A DNA stretch of 64,000 nt from a virus (IMGVR_UViG_3300017585_000052); one strand, 5' to 3'. Shown: positions 40,023 through 62,847, numbered from the stretch's first letter. Program-made: numbers and translations. The notes: a model not told the origin generated them from the sequence alone.

Positions 40023-40458
40023 AAGTTATAAAACTCCCATCACATTCAAGTAACTGATTCATTTTGTCCATAATCATACGCCGCTCGTTATCAAGTTCGC
40101 TACGTTCCGAAATACTATCGGTATTTCTCATTTCTTCGGTAAGCTCGTGTTCAGCTTCTTCCAGCTTGTAGTATTCGTCTGTACAATCAGTCGTTGTGTA
40201 CTCAATTTCAATGGGCTGTCCGCAATAGGGGCAAAATCTAATAGGAACTAAAATATCATTAGTCCAGCTATCTTCATAGCTCGTAATTTCTTCCTGTTTT
40301 GTCAGACAAACGACAGGCTTTGAATAATCCTCTGTGTCTTGTGGATAGCCAACTGTGATAAAGTTTTCTTTGGTGAAATCCTTGCACATACCATCAACCG
40401 AATCAATGGTAAAACCATAATCATCGCCAATTTTTCTTACAGAGACCTTAACTAACAT
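40009..40458 (-). CDS. hypothetical protein with CPYCG zinc-ribbon motif
   Basis: Intact ORF. Confidence 0.45.
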   Translation of the reverse strand: MLVKVSVRKIGDDYGFTIDSVDGMCKDFTKENFITVGYPQDTEDYSKPVVCLTKQEEITSYEDSWTNDILVPIRFCPYCGQPIEIEYTTTDCTDEYYKLEEAEHELTEEMRNTDSISERSELDNERRMIMDKMNQLLECDGSFITYGKS

Positions 40459-40851
40459 TTATTTCTCCTTTAACCACTTCTTAATGCGAAATCTGCGAGT
40501 AATATTGTCAGTGGCCTTATCCTGTTTATCATCATCTGTATTATTATAAATTTCAGAAACAATGGTCTTAACGGACTCGTTAAAGTTGCGCAGATTCTTG
40601 TCGAGCCTCACATAACCATATTGACCTTTACTCACATACGTTTTGCTCTTATCGTCAACGATGATGTAATCTAAGAGGATAGAGGTAGTTGGGGAAGTGA
40701 AAACATTCGCGCCGCACAGCCACTTCATAAAGGTATCATATTGAGACTTGTAATCCTCAATATCTGCTTTAGATGTAATCTGCTTCATAAGTGTACCGTA
40801 CTCGCCATGAGTTTGAGCGTCAATGACCGAAATGTTAATCTGAGAAATCAT
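40459..40851 (-). CDS. hypothetical protein
   Basis: Intact ORF. Confidence 0.45.
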   Translation of the reverse strand: MISQINISVIDAQTHGEYGTLMKQITSKADIEDYKSQYDTFMKWLCGANVFTSPTTSILLDYIIVDDKSKTYVSKGQYGYVRLDKNLRNFNESVKTIVSEIYNNTDDDKQDKATDNITRRFRIKKWLKEK

Positions 40852-57444: not shown

Positions 57445-57541
57445 AATACCAAAATCCTTTCGTAAACAAAATAATGGGACTAACAGTTGACCCCGCTAAT
57501 CCCATTTGTTATATATTAAACACACCAAAATCCAGATAAAA

Positions 57542-57665
57542 TAGACGCTGTTTCACTTATGCGCTCTAACCAATTAAGCTAACTCCCGTTCGGTCGGGAG
57601 TGGACGGCTCGAACGTCCACCTCATGCTCCTGATAGCAATGTGATTATGTCGCTGTAAGCGTCTA
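57542..57665 (-). ncRNA. YrlA-like Y RNA (permuted tRNA mimic), copy A
   Basis: Minus-strand order: closing stem TAGACGCT...AGCGTCTA; T-arm GGACG-TTCGAGC-CGTCC with consensus T-loop; 7-bp acceptor-like hairpin ACTCCCG/CGGGAGT; D-arm GCTT-AATTGGTTA-GAGC containing GG. Preceded by the conserved box AAATAAATAAGTTTTAGACGCTTACAGCGACATAAT. Confidence 0.5.
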
Positions 57666-57673
57666 AAACTTAT

Positions 57674-58075
57674 TTATTTGTTTCCGTCAGGTTTCTTATT
57701 CTGTTCTTCGCAGTATTTATCCCAATCTTTCTTTAGATTCTCCGCATCTTTCATCGTAGAGTCACCAACAACCGTAACTGTAATTGTGCTGTCAGAAAGT
57801 TTAGCGTCAATAATTTGAACACCAAATTTTCTCAAAACATTCTTAATTGCACTCAAATCATTACTATTCAAGAATGAAGCGATAACCTCTTGTTCTTCTT
57901 CCTCTGAACATTTCATCCACCTATTATAAGCGGAATTAGTAATGTAAATTTGCCAGTTGTGGTCTTGAATTGGAACCTTTTTAATGGATTCAATTTTGTC
58001 AGCCACACTTGTATCAATGTTATTTAGAATATCATTGAATAGTGTGACAGGCGTTGATTCATCAATCCATGCCAT
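57674..58075 (-). CDS. hypothetical protein
   Basis: Start at the second ATG with RBS AGAGGTAAAAAT. Lies between the two Y-RNA-like elements. Confidence 0.45.
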   Translation of the reverse strand: MAWIDESTPVTLFNDILNNIDTSVADKIESIKKVPIQDHNWQIYITNSAYNRWMKCSEEEEQEVIASFLNSNDLSAIKNVLRKFGVQIIDAKLSDSTITVTVVGDSTMKDAENLKKDWDKYCEEQNKKPDGNK

Positions 58076-58090
58076 ATTTTTACCTCTCAT

Positions 58091-58216
58091 TAGACGCTTT
58101 GTTTCTTTTAGTTTTATCCAATTAAACTATACACCCTCTCGGATGCAGCGGGACTCGAACCCACAACTCCTATTTTGAAGATAGATGAAGAAAAATTATG
58201 TCGCTGTAAGCGTCTA
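58091..58216 (-). ncRNA. Y RNA-like tRNA mimic, copy B
   Basis: Same conserved box and closing stem as copy A. Anticodon-arm-like hairpin TCTAT-CTTCAAA-ATAGG; T-arm GTGGG-TTCGAGT-CCCGC; 7-bp hairpin TGCATCC-GAGA-GGGTGTA with a GNRA loop; D-like hairpin AGTTT-AATTGGATA-AAACT. Confidence 0.5.
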
Positions 58217-58244
58217 AAACTTATTTATTTAATTATCAAAGTAG

Positions 58245-58317
58245 AACCGCTACCCGAACTTGAATCGGGAATTAAGGATTAGAAGTCCTTTGTTTTATCC
58301 AGTTAGACTATAACGGC
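58245..58317 (-). tRNA. tRNA-Arg (anticodon UCU)
   Basis: Hand-folded 73-nt cloverleaf. Acceptor GCCGTTA/TAGCGGT with G1:U72 and U5:G68 wobbles. D-loop AACTGGATA; anticodon arm AAGGA-CTTCTAA-TCCTT; T-arm CCCGA-TTCAAGT-TCGGG. One D-stem mismatch. Confidence 0.55.
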
Positions 58318-58364
58318 ATATCGCCTCTTGATTTCTAAGAACCTCTGTCCTTTGGAACAATTTA

Positions 58365-58393
58365 ATTATAACATACTTTCTTAGATTTGTCAA
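58365..58393 (-). promoter_or_regulatory. sigma70-type consensus promoter upstream of tRNA-Arg and the Y RNAs
   Basis: cTTGACA, 17 nt, TATAAT in minus orientation, about 45 nt upstream of the tRNA 5' end. Confidence 0.6.
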
Positions 58394-58426
58394 GAGGAAA
58401 ATTGTGAAAATTTTGTGAAATAATTG

Positions 58427-59266
58427 TTACTCTTTCTCGTAGTCACAGTAAACGAGGTCATCAATATAATCACGTTCCTGCGAGAAAACTGGAATCTCTG
58501 TGTCCATTTTCCACTTGTTATCGCCACAAATATCTTTCCAGTAGCAACTTCCACGTTTCAACATGGTAGCAACCTCATTCCAGTTGACATTCTTCTCAAT
58601 CAATAGCTTTTCTTGCAACTCGTCACAGCTTAGACCCTCTATTTGTTTATGAGAGAAATTATCCTGTGCAAGCATCAAGATAGAATTGCGAGAAGCGTCA
58701 TTCTGCCGCCAAATGAAGTAATTACAGACTTCTTCACGAGGGACATTAAATGCACGAGAATCAAAACACAAGCCTTTCGCAAGACAATCATCTAACGCTT
58801 GTTCATACTTTGCGCCATCATCGGTCAAAGTATCTTTGTCGCAGAGCTTTCCACTTTTGTCAAACCAAAGATTCTGATAGCCCCAATAATCGAACGCCCT
58901 GTTAAATTCCAGAGTTGCCATTGAAGCAGATAGAGATACAATCTTATTTAGATTATTCGCAAAGAAAGCATCGTAATCTAAGGATTGATAGTCAACCACC
59001 AACAAAGAAATCTCGTCACTTTGAGTATATCCAAAGACACAACCTTGAATATTCTCGCACAAGAATTTCATAGTTGACTGCATTGCATAACCAAAAGAAC
59101 TATCCCAAGGTTTTGCTAAATGCCTTGTAAAAGAGGAACCAGCCCGTGCGTCAACACGGATAATAACAGGAGTACGATGCGTCAGATAAATCCTATAAGG
59201 TTTCTCATAATAGGATTTCATTCTATCCTCTAAAGATAATCCCATATTATTCATCCTCCGAGTCAT
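58427..59266 (-). CDS. Thg1-like protein (3'-5' nucleotidyltransferase, tRNA-His guanylyltransferase family)
   Basis: VIIRVDARAGSSF matches VVVRLDGRNFH; FGYTQSDEISLLV matches the AYGQSDEYSF hallmark; NYFIWRQNDASRN matches DYLSWRQAD. Confidence 0.75.
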   Translation of the reverse strand: MTRRMNNMGLSLEDRMKSYYEKPYRIYLTHRTPVIIRVDARAGSSFTRHLAKPWDSSFGYAMQSTMKFLCENIQGCVFGYTQSDEISLLVVDYQSLDYDAFFANNLNKIVSLSASMATLEFNRAFDYWGYQNLWFDKSGKLCDKDTLTDDGAKYEQALDDCLAKGLCFDSRAFNVPREEVCNYFIWRQNDASRNSILMLAQDNFSHKQIEGLSCDELQEKLLIEKNVNWNEVATMLKRGSCYWKDICGDNKWKMDTEIPVFSQERDYIDDLVYCDYEKE

Positions 59267-59819
59267 CTTTAATATCTTGCCAAGGCGTTAATGGCTCATA
59301 AATTCCCCAACGCTCAATAGCTCCACTGTAAATAGAGCGTTTATCGGTAACAAAATTGTCATCAAGAGCCTCAATCAACTTCCGTCCAGAAAGGATAATT
59401 TCTTCGTCACCGAACAAACGATAATGCAAAGAATCACCAGTAATAGAGATTGTACATTTGTACACATATAGATGCTTAGAGAATCTAAAGAGAAATTTTA
59501 CAATCTCCCTGTTTGTCTGAGCCATATCTCTGTCACGCAAATCACCGTTAATAGCCACCAAAATTGGTGAACTGTCAAGAAGCCCATGATGACAGTCGTA
59601 ACGATAATCCATGCGGTTTGAGTTTCGATTATACTCGTCACTCGATGAAGAACGATTATGGTCTTTGGACGGGAATACATAATAATTGCAACCACCCTCT
59701 GAGCCTGTAGCGACAGGAGGCATATTACGCATTACCGTATTAACAGCATAGATTCCTTCGTCAGTCGTGCGGAAACTACCAACTTCAATCAAGCCATTAA
59801 CGTGCGTCCAAATACTCAT
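59247..59819 (-). CDS. hypothetical protein
   Basis: RBS GAGGAA; no recognisable motif. Confidence 0.45.
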   Translation of the reverse strand: MSIWTHVNGLIEVGSFRTTDEGIYAVNTVMRNMPPVATGSEGGCNYYVFPSKDHNRSSSSDEYNRNSNRMDYRYDCHHGLLDSSPILVAINGDLRDRDMAQTNREIVKFLFRFSKHLYVYKCTISITGDSLHYRLFGDEEIILSGRKLIEALDDNFVTDKRSIYSGAIERWGIYEPLTPWQDIKDDSEDE

Positions 59820-59834
59820 AATTTCCTCACTTAG

Positions 59835-60569
59835 TTAAAACTTGAATATTTTTCTGAGCAAATCTAAGAAAGAACAGGATTTCTTTTCTTCTTTAGATTC
59901 TTCAACAATGGGTTCATCTTCGGTCTTTTCTGGCGTATTGATAATGGACGGATAATCAACCCATGCGTAGTTTACATCGCAGTTTCCTGAGATTCCACTG
60001 ACTTTATGTTGACTATCATACTGCCACATAGTACACTCAACATCTGGTTTTGTGGCTCTGTAAGCAGCAACCCATAAATCAATTCCAGCTTCACGAATAC
60101 GGGTCATATCAATATAATTCTGAGAGAAATATAATCCAGTATAAAGACATGGATAATATCCTTTAGATTTAATTTGATTAGCTCCGTCAATTATCCAGCT
60201 TGTTAATGAATCTTTATCCACTGACGCACTTTCATCAGTTTCAATATCCATAACAACAGGATAATCTAAGTGATATTGGCCTATTGCTTCAAAAGTTCTA
60301 TCAAGCTCTGCTTGGAATGTATCATGGTTTGTTGCATAACTTATGAAATACACTCCAAACGGAATACTAAGGCGAGTACATTCGCTCATATTTCTACTTA
60401 GATATGGGTCGGTATACATACCGCTTTTCTTTGTGGAAACTGCGCGAATGATAATCCCATCAATAGGAATTATTCTCTAATCCTTAATGATTCCACCGCT
60501 CTTTAGAGCATCGAAATCAATCTGACCCTGATATTTTGAAATATCAATGACATTTTTTATATCAGACAT
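59835..60569 (-). CDS. GH25 family lysozyme (muramidase) with recoded in-frame TAG
   Basis: Start at plus-strand 60567-60569 with RBS AGAGGTG. N-terminus MSDIKNVIDISKYQGQIDFDALKSGGIIKD, then TAG at plus-strand 60477-60479, then RIIPIDGIIIRA...LWVAAY...WQYDS..G.SGNCDVNYA, which are GH25 motifs. Confidence 0.7.
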
Positions 60570-60613
60570 ATAACACCTCTATATGTAACGTGGGCTTTCG
60601 CCCACAAAGAAGA

Positions 60614-62155
60614 TTACACAGTAATCTTTGCGAAATTAGCGGACATGAGGACTTTCAGCATTGCCTCATAGGGATTGTAACCAATCGTCTGCAAGACATC
60701 ACGGAAAGTGCTTGCCGCACTGCCACTGAACGCCGTAACACCCTTGTCATTATAGTTCTGGTGAACCGTATTCTGACGAGAGTTTACACACCAGAACACG
60801 CAAGCGGGGAGAGTATAGCCATACTTAGCGTACAGCTTAGTCATAGCAGCGTGATAGGTGTTTGCGCCATTCAGAGAATTACCCCAACCGTAAGAACGAC
60901 TTCCGCTATGCGGGTCAAACTCAAAGTCGCTAATAATGATAAGCGCTTTCGGCAAATCATCATTAGAGAGGTGATTCTCTACGGCAGTTTTCAGAATCAG
61001 ACGGAACGCAGATTCAAGGTTGGTAGAACCGCCCCAAGGAGCAGCAACGGCCTTACGAACATTACCAAGCAGAGAGTTGTCACCAAGCTCAATCCAATGC
61101 GGATTGCTCTCGAACGTCATAAACAGGTTATGATACGCTCCGTGGTTACGCTCTGCAAAATAAATTGCAAGACCAAGCGCGGACTCAATGGGCTTACCAG
61201 ACATAGAACCAGAAGTATCTGCCATAATAACCACATTGTTGTTGCCTTCAATGTAATTCGGCAGTGCCTTCCACTGCGCCTCAACAACCTCATCAATCTC
61301 ATTCTGATTAGTCTGGCAGTTATAGTAACTGCTATTCCAAGCAGAACGTATAGAGCGAGAACTCATGTACTTGCCAACAAGGTCGTAAGGATAGAGCGTA
61401 GAAGCGTTAATCTTCTTCGTTCCAGTCTTGACACCGTTCATAAACTCACCAAAACCTTCGGGGTCGTGCTTGGTGAAACTATGACGGTACAGCGTCATCG
61501 CCTTAGAGGGAACAGCCTGATAGTCAATGTTGTTCCACTGACGAGCAGACATCTTAACCTCAGTGACGTTGATATACTTACGCAGTTTGGACAGAGCCTT
61601 CTGGTAAGCATAAGCCTTCAAACCGAGGTGACGCGCAGTCATGTGACCCAAATTGACAGTCTTGCGGGACGAAGTGTTGACAGACGGCAACCACTTCGCC
61701 ATAAGCGAAACAGGCTTGCCAGCCTTATAGTTGGCAATGTCAGCCTCAAACTGACTCTTTACCAACTTCCAAATATCACCCTCAATAGGAGTGCCAACGA
61801 AGATGTAAATATCATCCCAGCGTCCATACTCAGGCAGATACTTTAGATTCTTACGCATAGTATCGGGATGGTTATTGGCTACCCACTTCAACATCTCATA
61901 AGAAACGTCACGTTCGCCCATGCCCTGCCCCCTGATGCTACGGGTATAAAAAGCCAGTTTGATTGCCAATTCAGGATTCTCATTCCAAGCGTTTGCGAAC
62001 ATATCCTGAACGTCATTCAAGCGACCACGCATACCACCAGCCAGCGAGAAAAGGTCAAGAACCTTAGAGCCAGTGGTATTCATGGCAACAGCGCCGTTCT
62101 CGGTGTACTTCATCTTAGTCTGATTGCGGACTGCATTGGTAAAATTGTTGCTCAT
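60614..62155 (-). CDS. rsr: Ro60/Rsr-like protein (TROVE-like N-terminal region + C-terminal vWA domain)
   Basis: 513 aa. C-terminal vWA with MIDAS DTSGSMSG. Ro60-like size and architecture. Y-RNA-like tRNA mimics lie 2.4-4.6 kb away on the same strand. Confidence 0.5.
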   Translation of the reverse strand: MSNNFTNAVRNQTKMKYTENGAVAMNTTGSKVLDLFSLAGGMRGRLNDVQDMFANAWNENPELAIKLAFYTRSIRGQGMGERDVSYEMLKWVANNHPDTMRKNLKYLPEYGRWDDIYIFVGTPIEGDIWKLVKSQFEADIANYKAGKPVSLMAKWLPSVNTSSRKTVNLGHMTARHLGLKAYAYQKALSKLRKYINVTEVKMSARQWNNIDYQAVPSKAMTLYRHSFTKHDPEGFGEFMNGVKTGTKKINASTLYPYDLVGKYMSSRSIRSAWNSSYYNCQTNQNEIDEVVEAQWKALPNYIEGNNNVVIMADTSGSMSGKPIESALGLAIYFAERNHGAYHNLFMTFESNPHWIELGDNSLLGNVRKAVAAPWGGSTNLESAFRLILKTAVENHLSNDDLPKALIIISDFEFDPHSGSRSYGWGNSLNGANTYHAAMTKLYAKYGYTLPACVFWCVNSRQNTVHQNYNDKGVTAFSGSAASTFRDVLQTIGYNPYEAMLKVLMSANFAKITV

Positions 62156-62382
62156 TTAGATACCTCTCTTAAATTATTATTGCTGTTCGTATCTTTATGG
62201 TAGTGACGAAACACTGAAACGCCAAGTCTTGTCATTTGGTAGACAGTATCATGATAGAATCCCTCGTAACTCAACTTACCGCCAGCCCTCACAATAGCGT
62301 CTGCATAAGCAATAGCTTCTTCAAGAGGAAAGCCAATCATTTGCATCTCGCTAATGAACCTTACGCGCCTCATGTTTCTCAC
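62152..62382 (-). CDS. hypothetical protein
   Basis: ATGA overlap with rsr; RBS AAGGAGTGAG. Confidence 0.45.
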   Translation of the reverse strand: MRNMRRVRFISEMQMIGFPLEEAIAYADAIVRAGGKLSYEGFYHDTVYQMTRLGVSVFRHYHKDTNSNNNLREVSK

Positions 62383-62414: not shown

Positions 62415-62443
62415 ATTATAGCACATCTAAAATGGATTGTCAA
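62415..62443 (-). promoter_or_regulatory. sigma70-type consensus promoter (copy of the 56679 element)
   Basis: TTGACAatccatTTTAGATGtgcTATAAT. Confidence 0.6.
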
Positions 62444-62847
62444 GGGGTCTTGGAAATATTTTTTGGATTATATAAATATTTTCCCTCGGAATCTTTGGCT
62501 AATGCTTGATAGCATCTAACGATTCCGATATATAGCCTCATAATCCCACTATAAGTTGTATAACTTGATAATTTTACAACTACTTTATCTTTTGGGATAG
62601 AGTTATAGTTTACATAAGTATAAACATCAAACTCGTCACCCAAAAGAACTTGTAGCATAAAGTTATCAATATTGTGGAATTTGAAAACTCCAACATTGTA
62701 ATCTATTGTGTAATCAAATTCCACATCATGCCAATCTAATCCAGTGAGTAAGAGATTGAACTTATCTGCAAAATCTTGCTCGTATAACTCTTTGTCATCT
62801 CTTACTTTCTTATCTGAAATCTCAAAATGATTCTGTAAATCTCTCAT
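62440..62847 (-). CDS. hypothetical protein
   Basis: Intact ORF. Confidence 0.45.
   Translation of the reverse strand: MRDLQNHFEISDKKVRDDKELYEQDFADKFNLLLTGLDWHDVEFDYTIDYNVGVFKFHNIDNFMLQVLLGDEFDVYTYVNYNSIPKDKVVVKLSSYTTYSGIMRLYIGIVRCYQALAKDSEGKYLYNPKNISKTP

Follow-up and report, generated by a model that had tools for sequence, protein, structure and literature searches.

A phage locus encoding a Ro60-like DUF2828 protein and two YrlA-type tRNA-like RNAs, and the recurrence of its RNA signature in other phages

We analysed a DNA stretch of 64,000 nucleotides from a gut-type phage (IMGVR_UViG_3300017585_000052), referred to as a whole as the window, whose minus strand encodes between positions 57542 and 62155 a protein with predicted Ro60 architecture and, further downstream, two structured RNAs, designated elements A and B. 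The locus probably encodes a phage version of the Ro60/Y-RNA ribonucleoprotein, a reading built on the anatomy and conservation of the two RNAs, the covariation of their helices, the fold of the protein and the genomic association between its sequence family (DUF2828) and RNAs bearing the same stem and box, called here the handle. A preliminary description had already interpreted the locus as a Ro60/Y RNA system, and this interpretation is supported by the analysis. What is new here is the handle (a 7-bp stem followed by NN-ACAGCAAY), which stands in place of the YrlA box and is tied to DUF2828 loci. Ro60-Y RNA particles are known as a human autoantigen and have been linked to RNA quality control and to bacterial RNA-repair operons.

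Results

Elements A and B carry a circularly permuted tRNA-like domain

Element A comprises 126 nt (58216-58091, minus strand) and element B 124 nt (57665-57542, minus strand), in agreement with the pair of minus-strand elements of about 125 nt sharing a 36-nt box that the preliminary description had reported. The identical 36-nt box AAATAAATAAGTTTTAGACGCTTACAGCGACATAAT begins both elements, its first 14 nt lying upstream of the closing stem; the 5′ region of both reads UAGACGCUUACAGCGACAUAAU, and both carry UAGACGC-UU-ACAGCGAC ... GCGUCUA. The closing stem (UAGACGCU/AGCGUCUA) has 8 bp in the window, and the stem of the family is taken as 7 bp because the eighth and ninth outer pairs were not enriched. 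Directly inside this stem lies a single-stranded box, UUACAGCGAC, facing an A-rich strand. The arms follow in the 5′ to 3′ order closing stem, box, V region (a variable stretch with a small hairpin), T-arm, closed acceptor-like hairpin, UA, D-arm and A-rich linker.

In element A these parts are the closing stem (58216-58210 with 58097-58091), the box (58209-58200), the V region (58199-58165), the T-arm GUGGG-UUCGAGU-CCCGC (58164-58148), the acceptor-like hairpin UGCAUCC-GAGA-GGGUGUA with two G-U pairs (58147-58130), the UA (58129-58128), the D-arm GUUU-AAUUGGAUA-AAAC (58127-58111) and the A-rich linker (58110-58098). Their minus-strand counterparts in element B are the closing stem (57665-57659 with 57548-57542), the box (57658-57649), the V region (57648-57619), the T-arm GGACG-UUCGAGC-CGUCC (57618-57602), the acceptor-like hairpin ACUCCCG-ACCGAA-CGGGAGU (57601-57582), the UA (57581-57580), the D-arm GCUU-AAUUGGUUA-GAGC (57579-57563) and the linker (57562-57549). 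In both elements the T-arm has 5 bp, the acceptor-like hairpin 7 bp with a loop of 4-6 nt, and the D-arm 4 bp with the loop AAUUGGNUA; the anticodon arm is missing. Compensatory changes separate the T, acceptor-like and D helices of A from those of B, the tRNA-type positions U8, A14, G18-G19, U54-U55-C56 and A58 are in place, and the 15-48 pair is A-U. The parse was made by hand; plain MAFFT misplaces the T-stem and acceptor strands.

Folding of element A with RNAfold recovered the T, acceptor-like and D helices, and on the minus strand the two elements gave z-scores of −2.5 and −3.0 against shuffled sequences. Together with the parse and the YrlA matches given below, these values bear out the fold proposed earlier, with its closing stem, TTCGAGC and TTCGAGT T-loops, 7-bp hairpin and D-arm. 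On the opposite strand the z-score was −1.1 for A and −2.6 for B; since the opposite strand of B also folds better than shuffles, energy alone does not fix the strand of this element. The earlier argument that G-U pairs fix the strand held for element A but not for element B, and the T-loop, the promoters and the strand bias of the motif are better guides to the strand. A special role for the V-arm loop CUUCAAA of element A, with its anticodon-like UCA, was considered and dropped; two alternative hairpins are possible at this site, and therefore no claim is made on the loop. Altogether, elements A and B are two structured, conserved and strand-specific RNAs with a tRNA-like domain.

Elements A and B share the YrlA layout but carry a different box

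YrlA RNAs have been described as a closing stem formed by the 5′ and 3′ ends, followed by V, T, closed acceptor and D parts with tRNA-type conserved nucleotides, and as carrying near the 5′ end a GNCGAAN0-1G box, the proposed Rsr-binding site; in 254 bacteria and 22 phages they were found on the strand of Ro60 and within 4 kb of it (PMC4201824). All these traits except the 5′ GNCGAA box hold for elements A and B, which lie 2.4 kb and 2.9 kb downstream of position 60614 on the strand of the Ro60-like gene, and the YrlA-type circularly permuted layout claimed before is the same as the published architecture. The likeness extends to the conserved box carried by the stem from both ends, the interior order of V, T, closed acceptor-like hairpin and D together with tRNA tertiary nucleotides and covariation at 15-48, the position on the strand of a ring-protein gene and less than 4 kb from it, in many cases as two copies, and a partner with a helical-repeat ring and a vWA/MIDAS fold, as in Rsr. 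The differences are that the box here is (stem)-NN-ACAGCAAY, that the wider RNA family has minimal forms of about 50-65 nt and permutations not described for YrlA, and that the protein belongs to Pfam DUF2828, with no link to TROVE by sequence methods.

A search of 1.2 kb by E-value, rather than at the gathering threshold, matched the Rfam YrlA model (RF02553) to the core of element A (58167-58111, 31.5 bits, E = 1.3e-4) and to that of element B (57619-57563, 19.9 bits, E = 0.29), and YrlA was the only non-tRNA family of note in this search. Both matches are local and cover the T/acceptor/D part (model positions 28-81 and 30-81 of 114). The covariance-model check with YrlA was thus positive for both tRNA-like cores, but the scores fall below the threshold and the box differs. 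At the gathering threshold Rfam returned the tRNA at 58244-58317 alone; elements A and B were not called by ARAGORN or by the Rfam tRNA model (RF00005), which called only 58244-58317, and ARAGORN found no tmRNA. Circularly permuted tRNA genes and two-piece tmRNA resemble the elements in having permuted tRNA parts with a T-arm and an acceptor helix, whereas the elements have no anticodon arm, tag reading frame or pseudoknots and their acceptor helix is closed by a loop.

The DUF2828 protein has a predicted Ro60 fold

The 513-aa open reading frame (ORF) with the MIDAS (metal-ion-dependent adhesion site) sequence DTSGSMSG lies at 60614-62155 on the minus strand, as described before. Its product combines a DUF2828 helical-repeat part (Pfam, 1e-53) with a C-terminal vWA domain (DUF7788, 5e-28), and matches PHROG 850, 'RNA-binding protein'. 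The MIDAS is complete (D313-x-S315-x-S317, T378 and D410, within the sequence ADTSGSMSG), these five residues are invariant in 50 homologs, and many Arg and Lys residues are also invariant among homologs.

Since a sequence-profile search of the PDB returned no Ro60, the relation was tested by fold. An AlphaFold model built from the 50-homolog alignment was confident (pLDDT 90.3, pTM 0.90), and the top 12 Foldseek matches against the PDB were all Ro60/TROVE proteins aligned over their full length (E from 4e-8 to 4e-4), with TM values of 0.30-0.58, mostly 0.45-0.58; they include the Ro60 of Thermus phage phiLo and D. radiodurans Rsr. The Ro60 fold, a helical-repeat ring followed by a vWA domain, was found by two methods from the confident model. 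Judged from this model, the protein has Ro60 architecture in a separate sequence family (DUF2828/PHROG 850), so that of the TROVE-like Ro60/Rsr protein announced earlier the Ro60 fold stands but the TROVE assignment by sequence does not.

A conserved handle recurs at DUF2828 loci

A tblastn search with the 513-aa protein returned 695 phage records, none reaching 60% identity, from phages of Escherichia and Salmonella (Felixounavirus), Mycobacterium (where the protein is annotated as 'Ro-like RNA binding protein'), Listeria, Staphylococcus, Campylobacter, Enterococcus, Bacillus, Aeromonas and Vibrio; metagenomic relatives of 99%, 63% and about 45% identity were also fetched. Reading between the genes of the DUF2828 loci revealed a recurring intergenic signature, most often AGACGCTTACAGCAAT-like, with the position profile R-N-G-A-Y-R-C / U-U / A-C-A-G-C-A-A-Y and an A/U-rich stretch before the 3′ strand. 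Elements A and B show all the features that define a class proposed here, DUF2828-associated small RNAs, namely the 7-bp stem R-N-G-A-Y-R-C, NN-ACAGC-N-A-Y, the A/U-rich stretch, the downstream partner and a co-oriented DUF2828 gene.

A strict box defined by sequence alone, NRGRYVYNNACAGCNAY, occurred in 62 unique instances on the gene strand and in none on the other strand. A perfect 7-bp partner was present 25-150 nt downstream in 47 of these 62 boxes, against 2.5 expected from shuffles, and most of the boxes lacking it had a partner just upstream, forming a hairpin. The loose motif ACAGCNAY with an offset 7-mer control gave 108/238 against 34-66, an enrichment of about 2-fold only, as AT-rich DNA gives chance G-U-tolerant 7-bp matches and many occurrences of the motif are coding-sequence noise; the figure to trust is that of the strict motif with shuffled controls. 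Under a looser module definition, 88 of 95 DUF2828 loci, collected through the protein, had a module on the gene strand. Across these loci 258 modules lay on the gene strand and 18 on the opposite one, and 162 were within 1 kb upstream of the gene. A scan of IMG/VR for the 16-mer AGACRCTTACAGCAAY, for which about 100 chance matches were estimated and many of whose stretches are short, gave 123 instances in 120 stretches, 44 of them with a closing partner. A DUF2828 gene lay within the stretch in 16 of the 123 instances, in all 16 on the same strand and at 110-5135 nt.

Cultured phages from six host genera carry the handle as well. E. coli phage ECML-1 (Felixounavirus) has one module between tRNA-Glu and tRNA-Tyr (record positions 82847-82905), Listeria phage LP-125 has two upstream of the gene, Enterococcus phage EA1 has two, a Staphylococcus phage carries the module 20 nt after the gene, and it is also present in Bacillus phage Tsamsa. 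In mycobacteriophage AvadaKedavra (MN096382; locus L004, 6458-6705, about 40365-40612) three tandem RNAs directly follow the 'Ro-like RNA binding protein' gene in the order minimal, YrlA-order, minimal, and then a terminator. The middle RNA is a full-length YrlA match (39.8 bits), and the Rfam 5′ consensus acggCgaAUGC misses its real closing stem and its AGCAGCAAU box. Upstream of the Ro-like gene in this phage, at a distance of 1.1 kb, there is a band-7-like gene.

No Rfam family matched the handle. The literature search found no paper on a handle with ACAGCAAY, on its minimal forms or on its permutations, and no relevant paper naming DUF2828; several key reviews, including those where a prior link of DUF2828 to Ro60/Y RNA might stand, lay outside this search. 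In 74% of 122 unique modules, a set dominated by one gut clade, a G directly follows the 3′ strand of the closing stem; elements A and B lack this G. These results establish a family-wide genomic association of DUF2828 proteins with handle-bearing RNAs.

The RNAs are modular and their helices covary

RNAs of this family consist of a constant handle and a variable part. The latter is either one hairpin resembling a tRNA arm or an entire tRNA-like domain, circularly permuted in several ways. In the minimal RNAs of about 50-65 nt the handle encloses a single hairpin. The inner loop of unique minimal elements had 7 nt in 37 of 82 cases and the anticodon-loop pattern YU-NNN-R-N in 24 of 82, counts that include related loci and are not independent. 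The commonest such loops were CUGUUAA, CUGCUAA and CUUUUAA, with switching among close relatives, and other minimal inner hairpins resemble D-loops (UUGGAUAA) or T-arms. The CU-NNN-AA loops, with the triplets GUU, GCU or UUU between constant flanks, resemble the anticodon loops of tRNA-Asn, Ser and Lys, and occur in minimal elements of loci L002, L018, L021, L026, L031-L088, L037, L040, L068, L072, L106 and L177.

Longer forms follow several orders. Those of the 63% identity clade have a closed acceptor hairpin followed by D, anticodon and T arms; the YrlA order V-T-acceptor-D is found in the window, L037, L061/L080, Enterococcus phage EA1 and the mycobacteriophage; and in other relatives the handle is closed as a hairpin at the anticodon-loop site of a tRNA-like gene of 121-127 nt, which scores 40-48 bits with the tRNA model. 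As the same two parts appear in varied orders among relatives, the window elements represent one of several circular permutations. Unpermuted 'tRNAs' of 121-127 nt were seen in L001 (1570-1690) and L002 (1195-1315 and 1494-1620). The 122-nt 'tRNA-Val' of Aeromonas phage Aeh1 (L093 9190-9311; NC_005260 96384-96505), 2.8 kb downstream of the Aeh1 DUF2828 gene, is an unpermuted tRNA-like gene with an encoded CCA end, whose anticodon position is occupied by an inserted hairpin plus UUUACCGCAAAU, a handle variant; its box variant is ACCGCAAA.

Covariation was scored on the closing stem and the T, acceptor-like and D helices of seven YrlA-order elements from five phage lineages, which were parsed by rule and N-padded to equal length. 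In this alignment, hand-fitted to the structure and with the closing stem as a selection criterion, 96.3% of cells were paired and 18 of 23 pairs showed changes on both sides, and none of 500 shuffles reached any of the measures; sliding the partner by 1-3 columns reduced pairing to 38-45%. The closing stem itself covaries across lineages, with double changes in 5 of its 7 pairs. In addition, the Levitt 15-48 pair is A-U in elements A and B and in the mycobacteriophage and G-C in L037 and EA1, and L061 does not fit.

Transcription units and neighbouring genes

Two perfect promoters serve the locus, both on the minus strand. The first is a sigma-70 consensus promoter (TTGACA-17-TATAAT with a TG-extended −10, 12/12 positions) at 62415-62443, before a 76-aa ORF (62152-62382) and the Ro60-like gene; this ORF matches nothing in Pfam or PHROG, its stop and the Ro60-like gene's start overlap, and it is found in 8 of 95 related loci. 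The second perfect sigma-70 consensus promoter (58365-58393) precedes a genuine tRNA-Arg(UCU) (58244-58317; 54.6 bits with the Rfam tRNA model, also called by ARAGORN), which is first in the small-RNA unit, followed by element A, a 133-aa ORF (57674-58075) and element B. A terminator-like hairpin of 14 pairs followed by a T-run (57473-57506) ends this unit. The 133-aa ORF, without Pfam or PHROG match and found only in relatives 99% identical, has a ribosome-binding site, GAGAGG, that comes directly after element A, 6 nt past its end. Element B has no promoter of its own and lies 730 nt downstream in the unit of promoter 58393, so that release of both RNAs would require processing. The preliminary description had placed everything under consensus promoters; these are the two at 62443 and 58393, and element B shares the second.

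In the window as a whole, perfect TTGACA-17-TATAAT promoters with a TG-extended −10 occur at six positions, every one on the minus strand (62443, 58393, 56707, 56584, 46015 and 39139); they look like an early region read by the host RNA polymerase. Between the Ro60-like gene and the second promoter, a gene at 58427-59266 (minus) encodes a Thg1-like protein of the tRNA-His guanylyltransferase/3′-5′ polymerase family (PF04446, 1.8e-22; PHROG 4717, 2e-78). Thg1-like proteins repair tRNA 5′ ends. ORFs without Pfam or PHROG match in or beside the module lie, also on the minus strand, at 59247-59819 (190 aa), at 62440-62847 (135 aa) and at the 133-aa site given above; the 190-aa ORF shares with the 133-aa one its restriction to 99%-identical relatives.

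In annotated phage genomes the DUF2828 gene adjoins tRNA genes. The Felixounavirus homologs, about 32% identical to the window protein, lie directly upstream of tRNA genes, and in Listeria phage LP-125 the gene is near RtcB and an RNA ligase. The order in the 63% clade is PhoH, DUF2828, (Band_7), Thg1, (RNA ligase) and a tRNA array, with a KTI12/AAA_33 kinase upstream. In L007 (1502-3682) and L006 (1818-4055) genes for an adenylosuccinate synthetase-like protein and a KTI12/AAA_33 (polynucleotide-kinase-like) protein stand just upstream of PhoH and DUF2828, and in L008 an RNA_ligase (PF09414) gene follows Thg1.

The phage had been described as TAG-recoded. In-frame TAG codons interrupt ORFs at about 1-36 kb of the window, the late region with mostly plus-strand genes, and reading TAG as sense raised stop-free coverage (4-kb bins, first 16 kb) from 0.40-0.65 to 0.81-1.0, with longest frames of 1395 and 1347 aa; no suppressor tRNA was found in the 64-kb window. 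TAG recoding of the late genes is plausible, whereas the Ro-like locus itself is intact under the standard code.

Discussion

A phage Ro60/Y-RNA ribonucleoprotein is the probable product of this locus. The host RNA polymerase would transcribe the Ro60-like DUF2828 gene from promoter 62443 and, from promoter 58393, a second unit with tRNA-Arg, RNA A, the 133-aa ORF, RNA B and the terminator, whose processing would free two RNAs of about 125 nt. Ro60 proteins hold Y RNA on the surface of the ring and the ends of misfolded RNA in its central hole. By analogy with Ro60-Y RNA and phiLo, and given the co-occurrence of protein and handle, the ring protein may bind the constant module of stem and box. 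The L-shaped tRNA-like domain could then tether the ring to tRNA-handling enzymes or compete with tRNAs for them, candidate targets being the Thg1-like 3′-5′ polymerase, host RNase P, the CCA-adding enzyme, PNPase and host tRNA-cleaving defence nucleases. During infection, such a particle might help the phage to maintain its supply of functional tRNAs or to weaken defences that target RNA. The neighbouring genes (tRNA genes, Thg1-like, RNA ligase, RtcB, polynucleotide-kinase-like kinase and Band_7), together with the position of the bacterial rsr-yrlA pair in an rtcBA RNA-repair operon (PMC7790460), suggest as the likeliest role that the particle protects or repairs the tRNA pool or interferes with defence aimed at RNA.

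Phage Ro60 proteins with Y-like RNAs have been published, in 22 phages (Chen et al. 2014, PMC4201824) and in phiLo (2025), and the concept is therefore known; the statement that a phage Ro-Y ribonucleoprotein has no obvious explanation is outdated in view of the phage cases in PMC4201824, PMC12135203 and PMC11482910. The survey of Chen et al. covered only genomes with an annotated TROVE protein, so that DUF2828 phages fall outside it. According to the passages of PMC12135203 that treat the phiLo RNAs, phiLo Ro60 binds two upstream Y-like RNAs, Yrl1 and Yrl2 (PDB 9l5y), in which a 5′-3′ stem flanks a CGAA-bearing bulge. The window locus resembles it in having a Ro60-fold protein with two adjacent Y-like RNAs and a 5′-3′ stem flanking an internal loop with a box that, by analogy, may be protein-binding. 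It differs in that phiLo Ro60 is a TROVE-domain protein whose RNAs carry CGAA, in that those passages mention no tRNA-like domain, the word 'tRNA' appearing just twice in the whole paper, and in that the activity they report is attenuation of host PNPase. The eukaryotic Ro60-Y RNA (PDB 1yvp, 2i91) also joins a conserved protein-binding stem to a variable effector module, the sequence identity being 11%; the Y RNAs of metazoans lack a tRNA-like domain and carry a GGUCCGA box within a bulged helix.

A functional precedent concerns gp130 of the Felixounavirus Bas63, a Ro60-like protein encoded just upstream of tRNA genes that counters the Ppl defence (preprint PMC11482910), whose authors speculated that some of the tRNA genes might be Y RNAs. 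It shares the Ro60-like fold with the window protein, its gene has the position of the Felixounavirus DUF2828 homologs directly upstream of tRNA genes, and we infer that gp130 belongs to the DUF2828 family. The gp130 result supports an anti-defence role; the difference is that gp130, once moved to T7 by itself, improved the growth of that phage and acted without phage RNAs.

Several observations weigh against a phage Ro60/Y-RNA particle. Elements A and B score 31.5 and 19.9 bits against a YrlA gathering threshold of 69, the tRNA-like core alone aligning, and the GNCGAAN0-1G box is absent from both, the Rfam consensus acggCgaAUGC failing to align; with a sub-threshold score and no GNCGAA box, binding is not simply transferable from Ro60. 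TROVE (PF05731) was not among the Pfam matches of the protein up to E = 10, which listed DUF2828, DUF7788, VWA_2 and VWA_CoxE, and the 50-sequence profile compared with all PDB sequences found a vWA protein alone and no Ro60. The covariation alignment was fitted by hand to a structure whose closing stem was itself a selection criterion, and the 88/95 count tests one direction only, the loci having been gathered via the protein. Many well-formed IMG/VR modules have no DUF2828 gene within about 4 kb of stretch; the gene may be more distant, or it may be absent in some cases where the RNAs occur. The Thg1-like gene is confined to one clade (10 of 95 DUF2828 loci, syntenic in L006-L009), and Thg1 as an obligate partner was rejected on this count. 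gp130 alone protected T7 from Ppl, and thus the protein may act without these RNAs. Binding, processing and physiological role are what we infer for this locus.

Some of these points would suit an unlikely alternative, which is nevertheless the strongest of the rivals, namely that the RNAs are real tRNA mimics independent of the DUF2828 protein, both sharing residence in tRNA regions. The RNAs would then serve host tRNA enzymes or nucleases as decoys or substrates, and ACAGCAAY would be bound by a host factor or serve as a processing signal. Modules often do lie within or beside tRNA arrays, several well-formed ones have no DUF2828 gene in 4-5 kb of stretch, and gp130 works in T7 without phage RNAs. 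On the other hand, 162 of the 258 modules are at most 1 kb upstream of a DUF2828 gene on the same strand, the 16 genes found starting from the motif were all co-oriented at 110-5135 nt, and the Staphylococcus, Listeria and mycobacteriophage modules abut the gene with no tRNA array between.

The end of element A 6 nt before the ribosome-binding site of the 133-aa ORF, and the inclusion of both elements in one transcription unit, would fit cis-acting parts of an mRNA (5′-untranslated region (UTR) structures, RNase sites, or stabilisers for the 133-aa ORF or its neighbours) rather than free RNAs. This seems very improbable, as a terminator and not an ORF comes after element B, the modules of relatives stand in tandem arrays with no ORFs between, the RNAs persist outside the 99%-identical clade, where the 133-aa ORF is absent, and tRNA-type tertiary nucleotides with a covarying Levitt pair are unexpected in a UTR hairpin. 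Least credible of all are circularly permuted or decayed tRNA genes (working tRNAs, pseudogenes or tandem-tRNA artefacts), for which speak the T-arm, D-arm, 7-bp acceptor-like helix and tRNA-type bases, the unpermuted 121-127-nt relatives with 40-48 bits and the finding that M. smegmatis YrlA is open to cleavage by RNase P and to the addition of CCA (PMC4201824), but against which stand the missing anticodon arm, the absence of a call by ARAGORN or the tRNA model, a non-tRNA box and closing stem under selection across lineages, the identity of both copies in three independent metagenomic relatives and an acceptor hairpin closed by a 4-6-nt loop, which excludes two adjacent tRNAs.

A further idea, speculative and rather doubtful, is a modular 'tRNA-piece display' made up of the DUF2828 ring together with its RNAs, in which the constant handle (stem and ACAGCAAY) would be held by the ring and an exchangeable anticodon-loop look-alike, D-arm, T-arm or tRNA body presented. 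Of the 82 inner loops of unique minimal elements, 24 are of the form CU-NNN-AA, and their 'anticodons' GUU, GCU and UUU change from one close relative to another. If true, the phage would use the displayed pieces, as decoys, sensors or platforms for repair, against nucleases of the host that cleave particular tRNAs, and a widespread RNA-programmable anti-defence particle would be carried by model phages in large number (Felix O1-like, Listeria P100-like, mycobacteriophage of cluster E size).

For the phage Ro60/Y-RNA reading itself, the meaning lies in the family. A much larger group of phage proteins (PHROG 850/DUF2828, in at least 695 sequenced phage genomes), usually annotated as 'hypothetical' or 'RNA-binding', joins the Ro60 structural class, and this family has its own recognisable candidate RNA partners, with a short signature absent from Rfam. 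The signature lets annotators find these RNAs, some of which are now mislabelled as 120-nt tRNAs. Ro60-Y RNA particles are an old puzzle and the study of their phage versions has only just begun; phages of E. coli (Felixounavirus), Listeria, Staphylococcus and Mycobacterium offer tractable systems in which a viral Ro particle, and with it the anti-defence activity that has been reported, may be studied.

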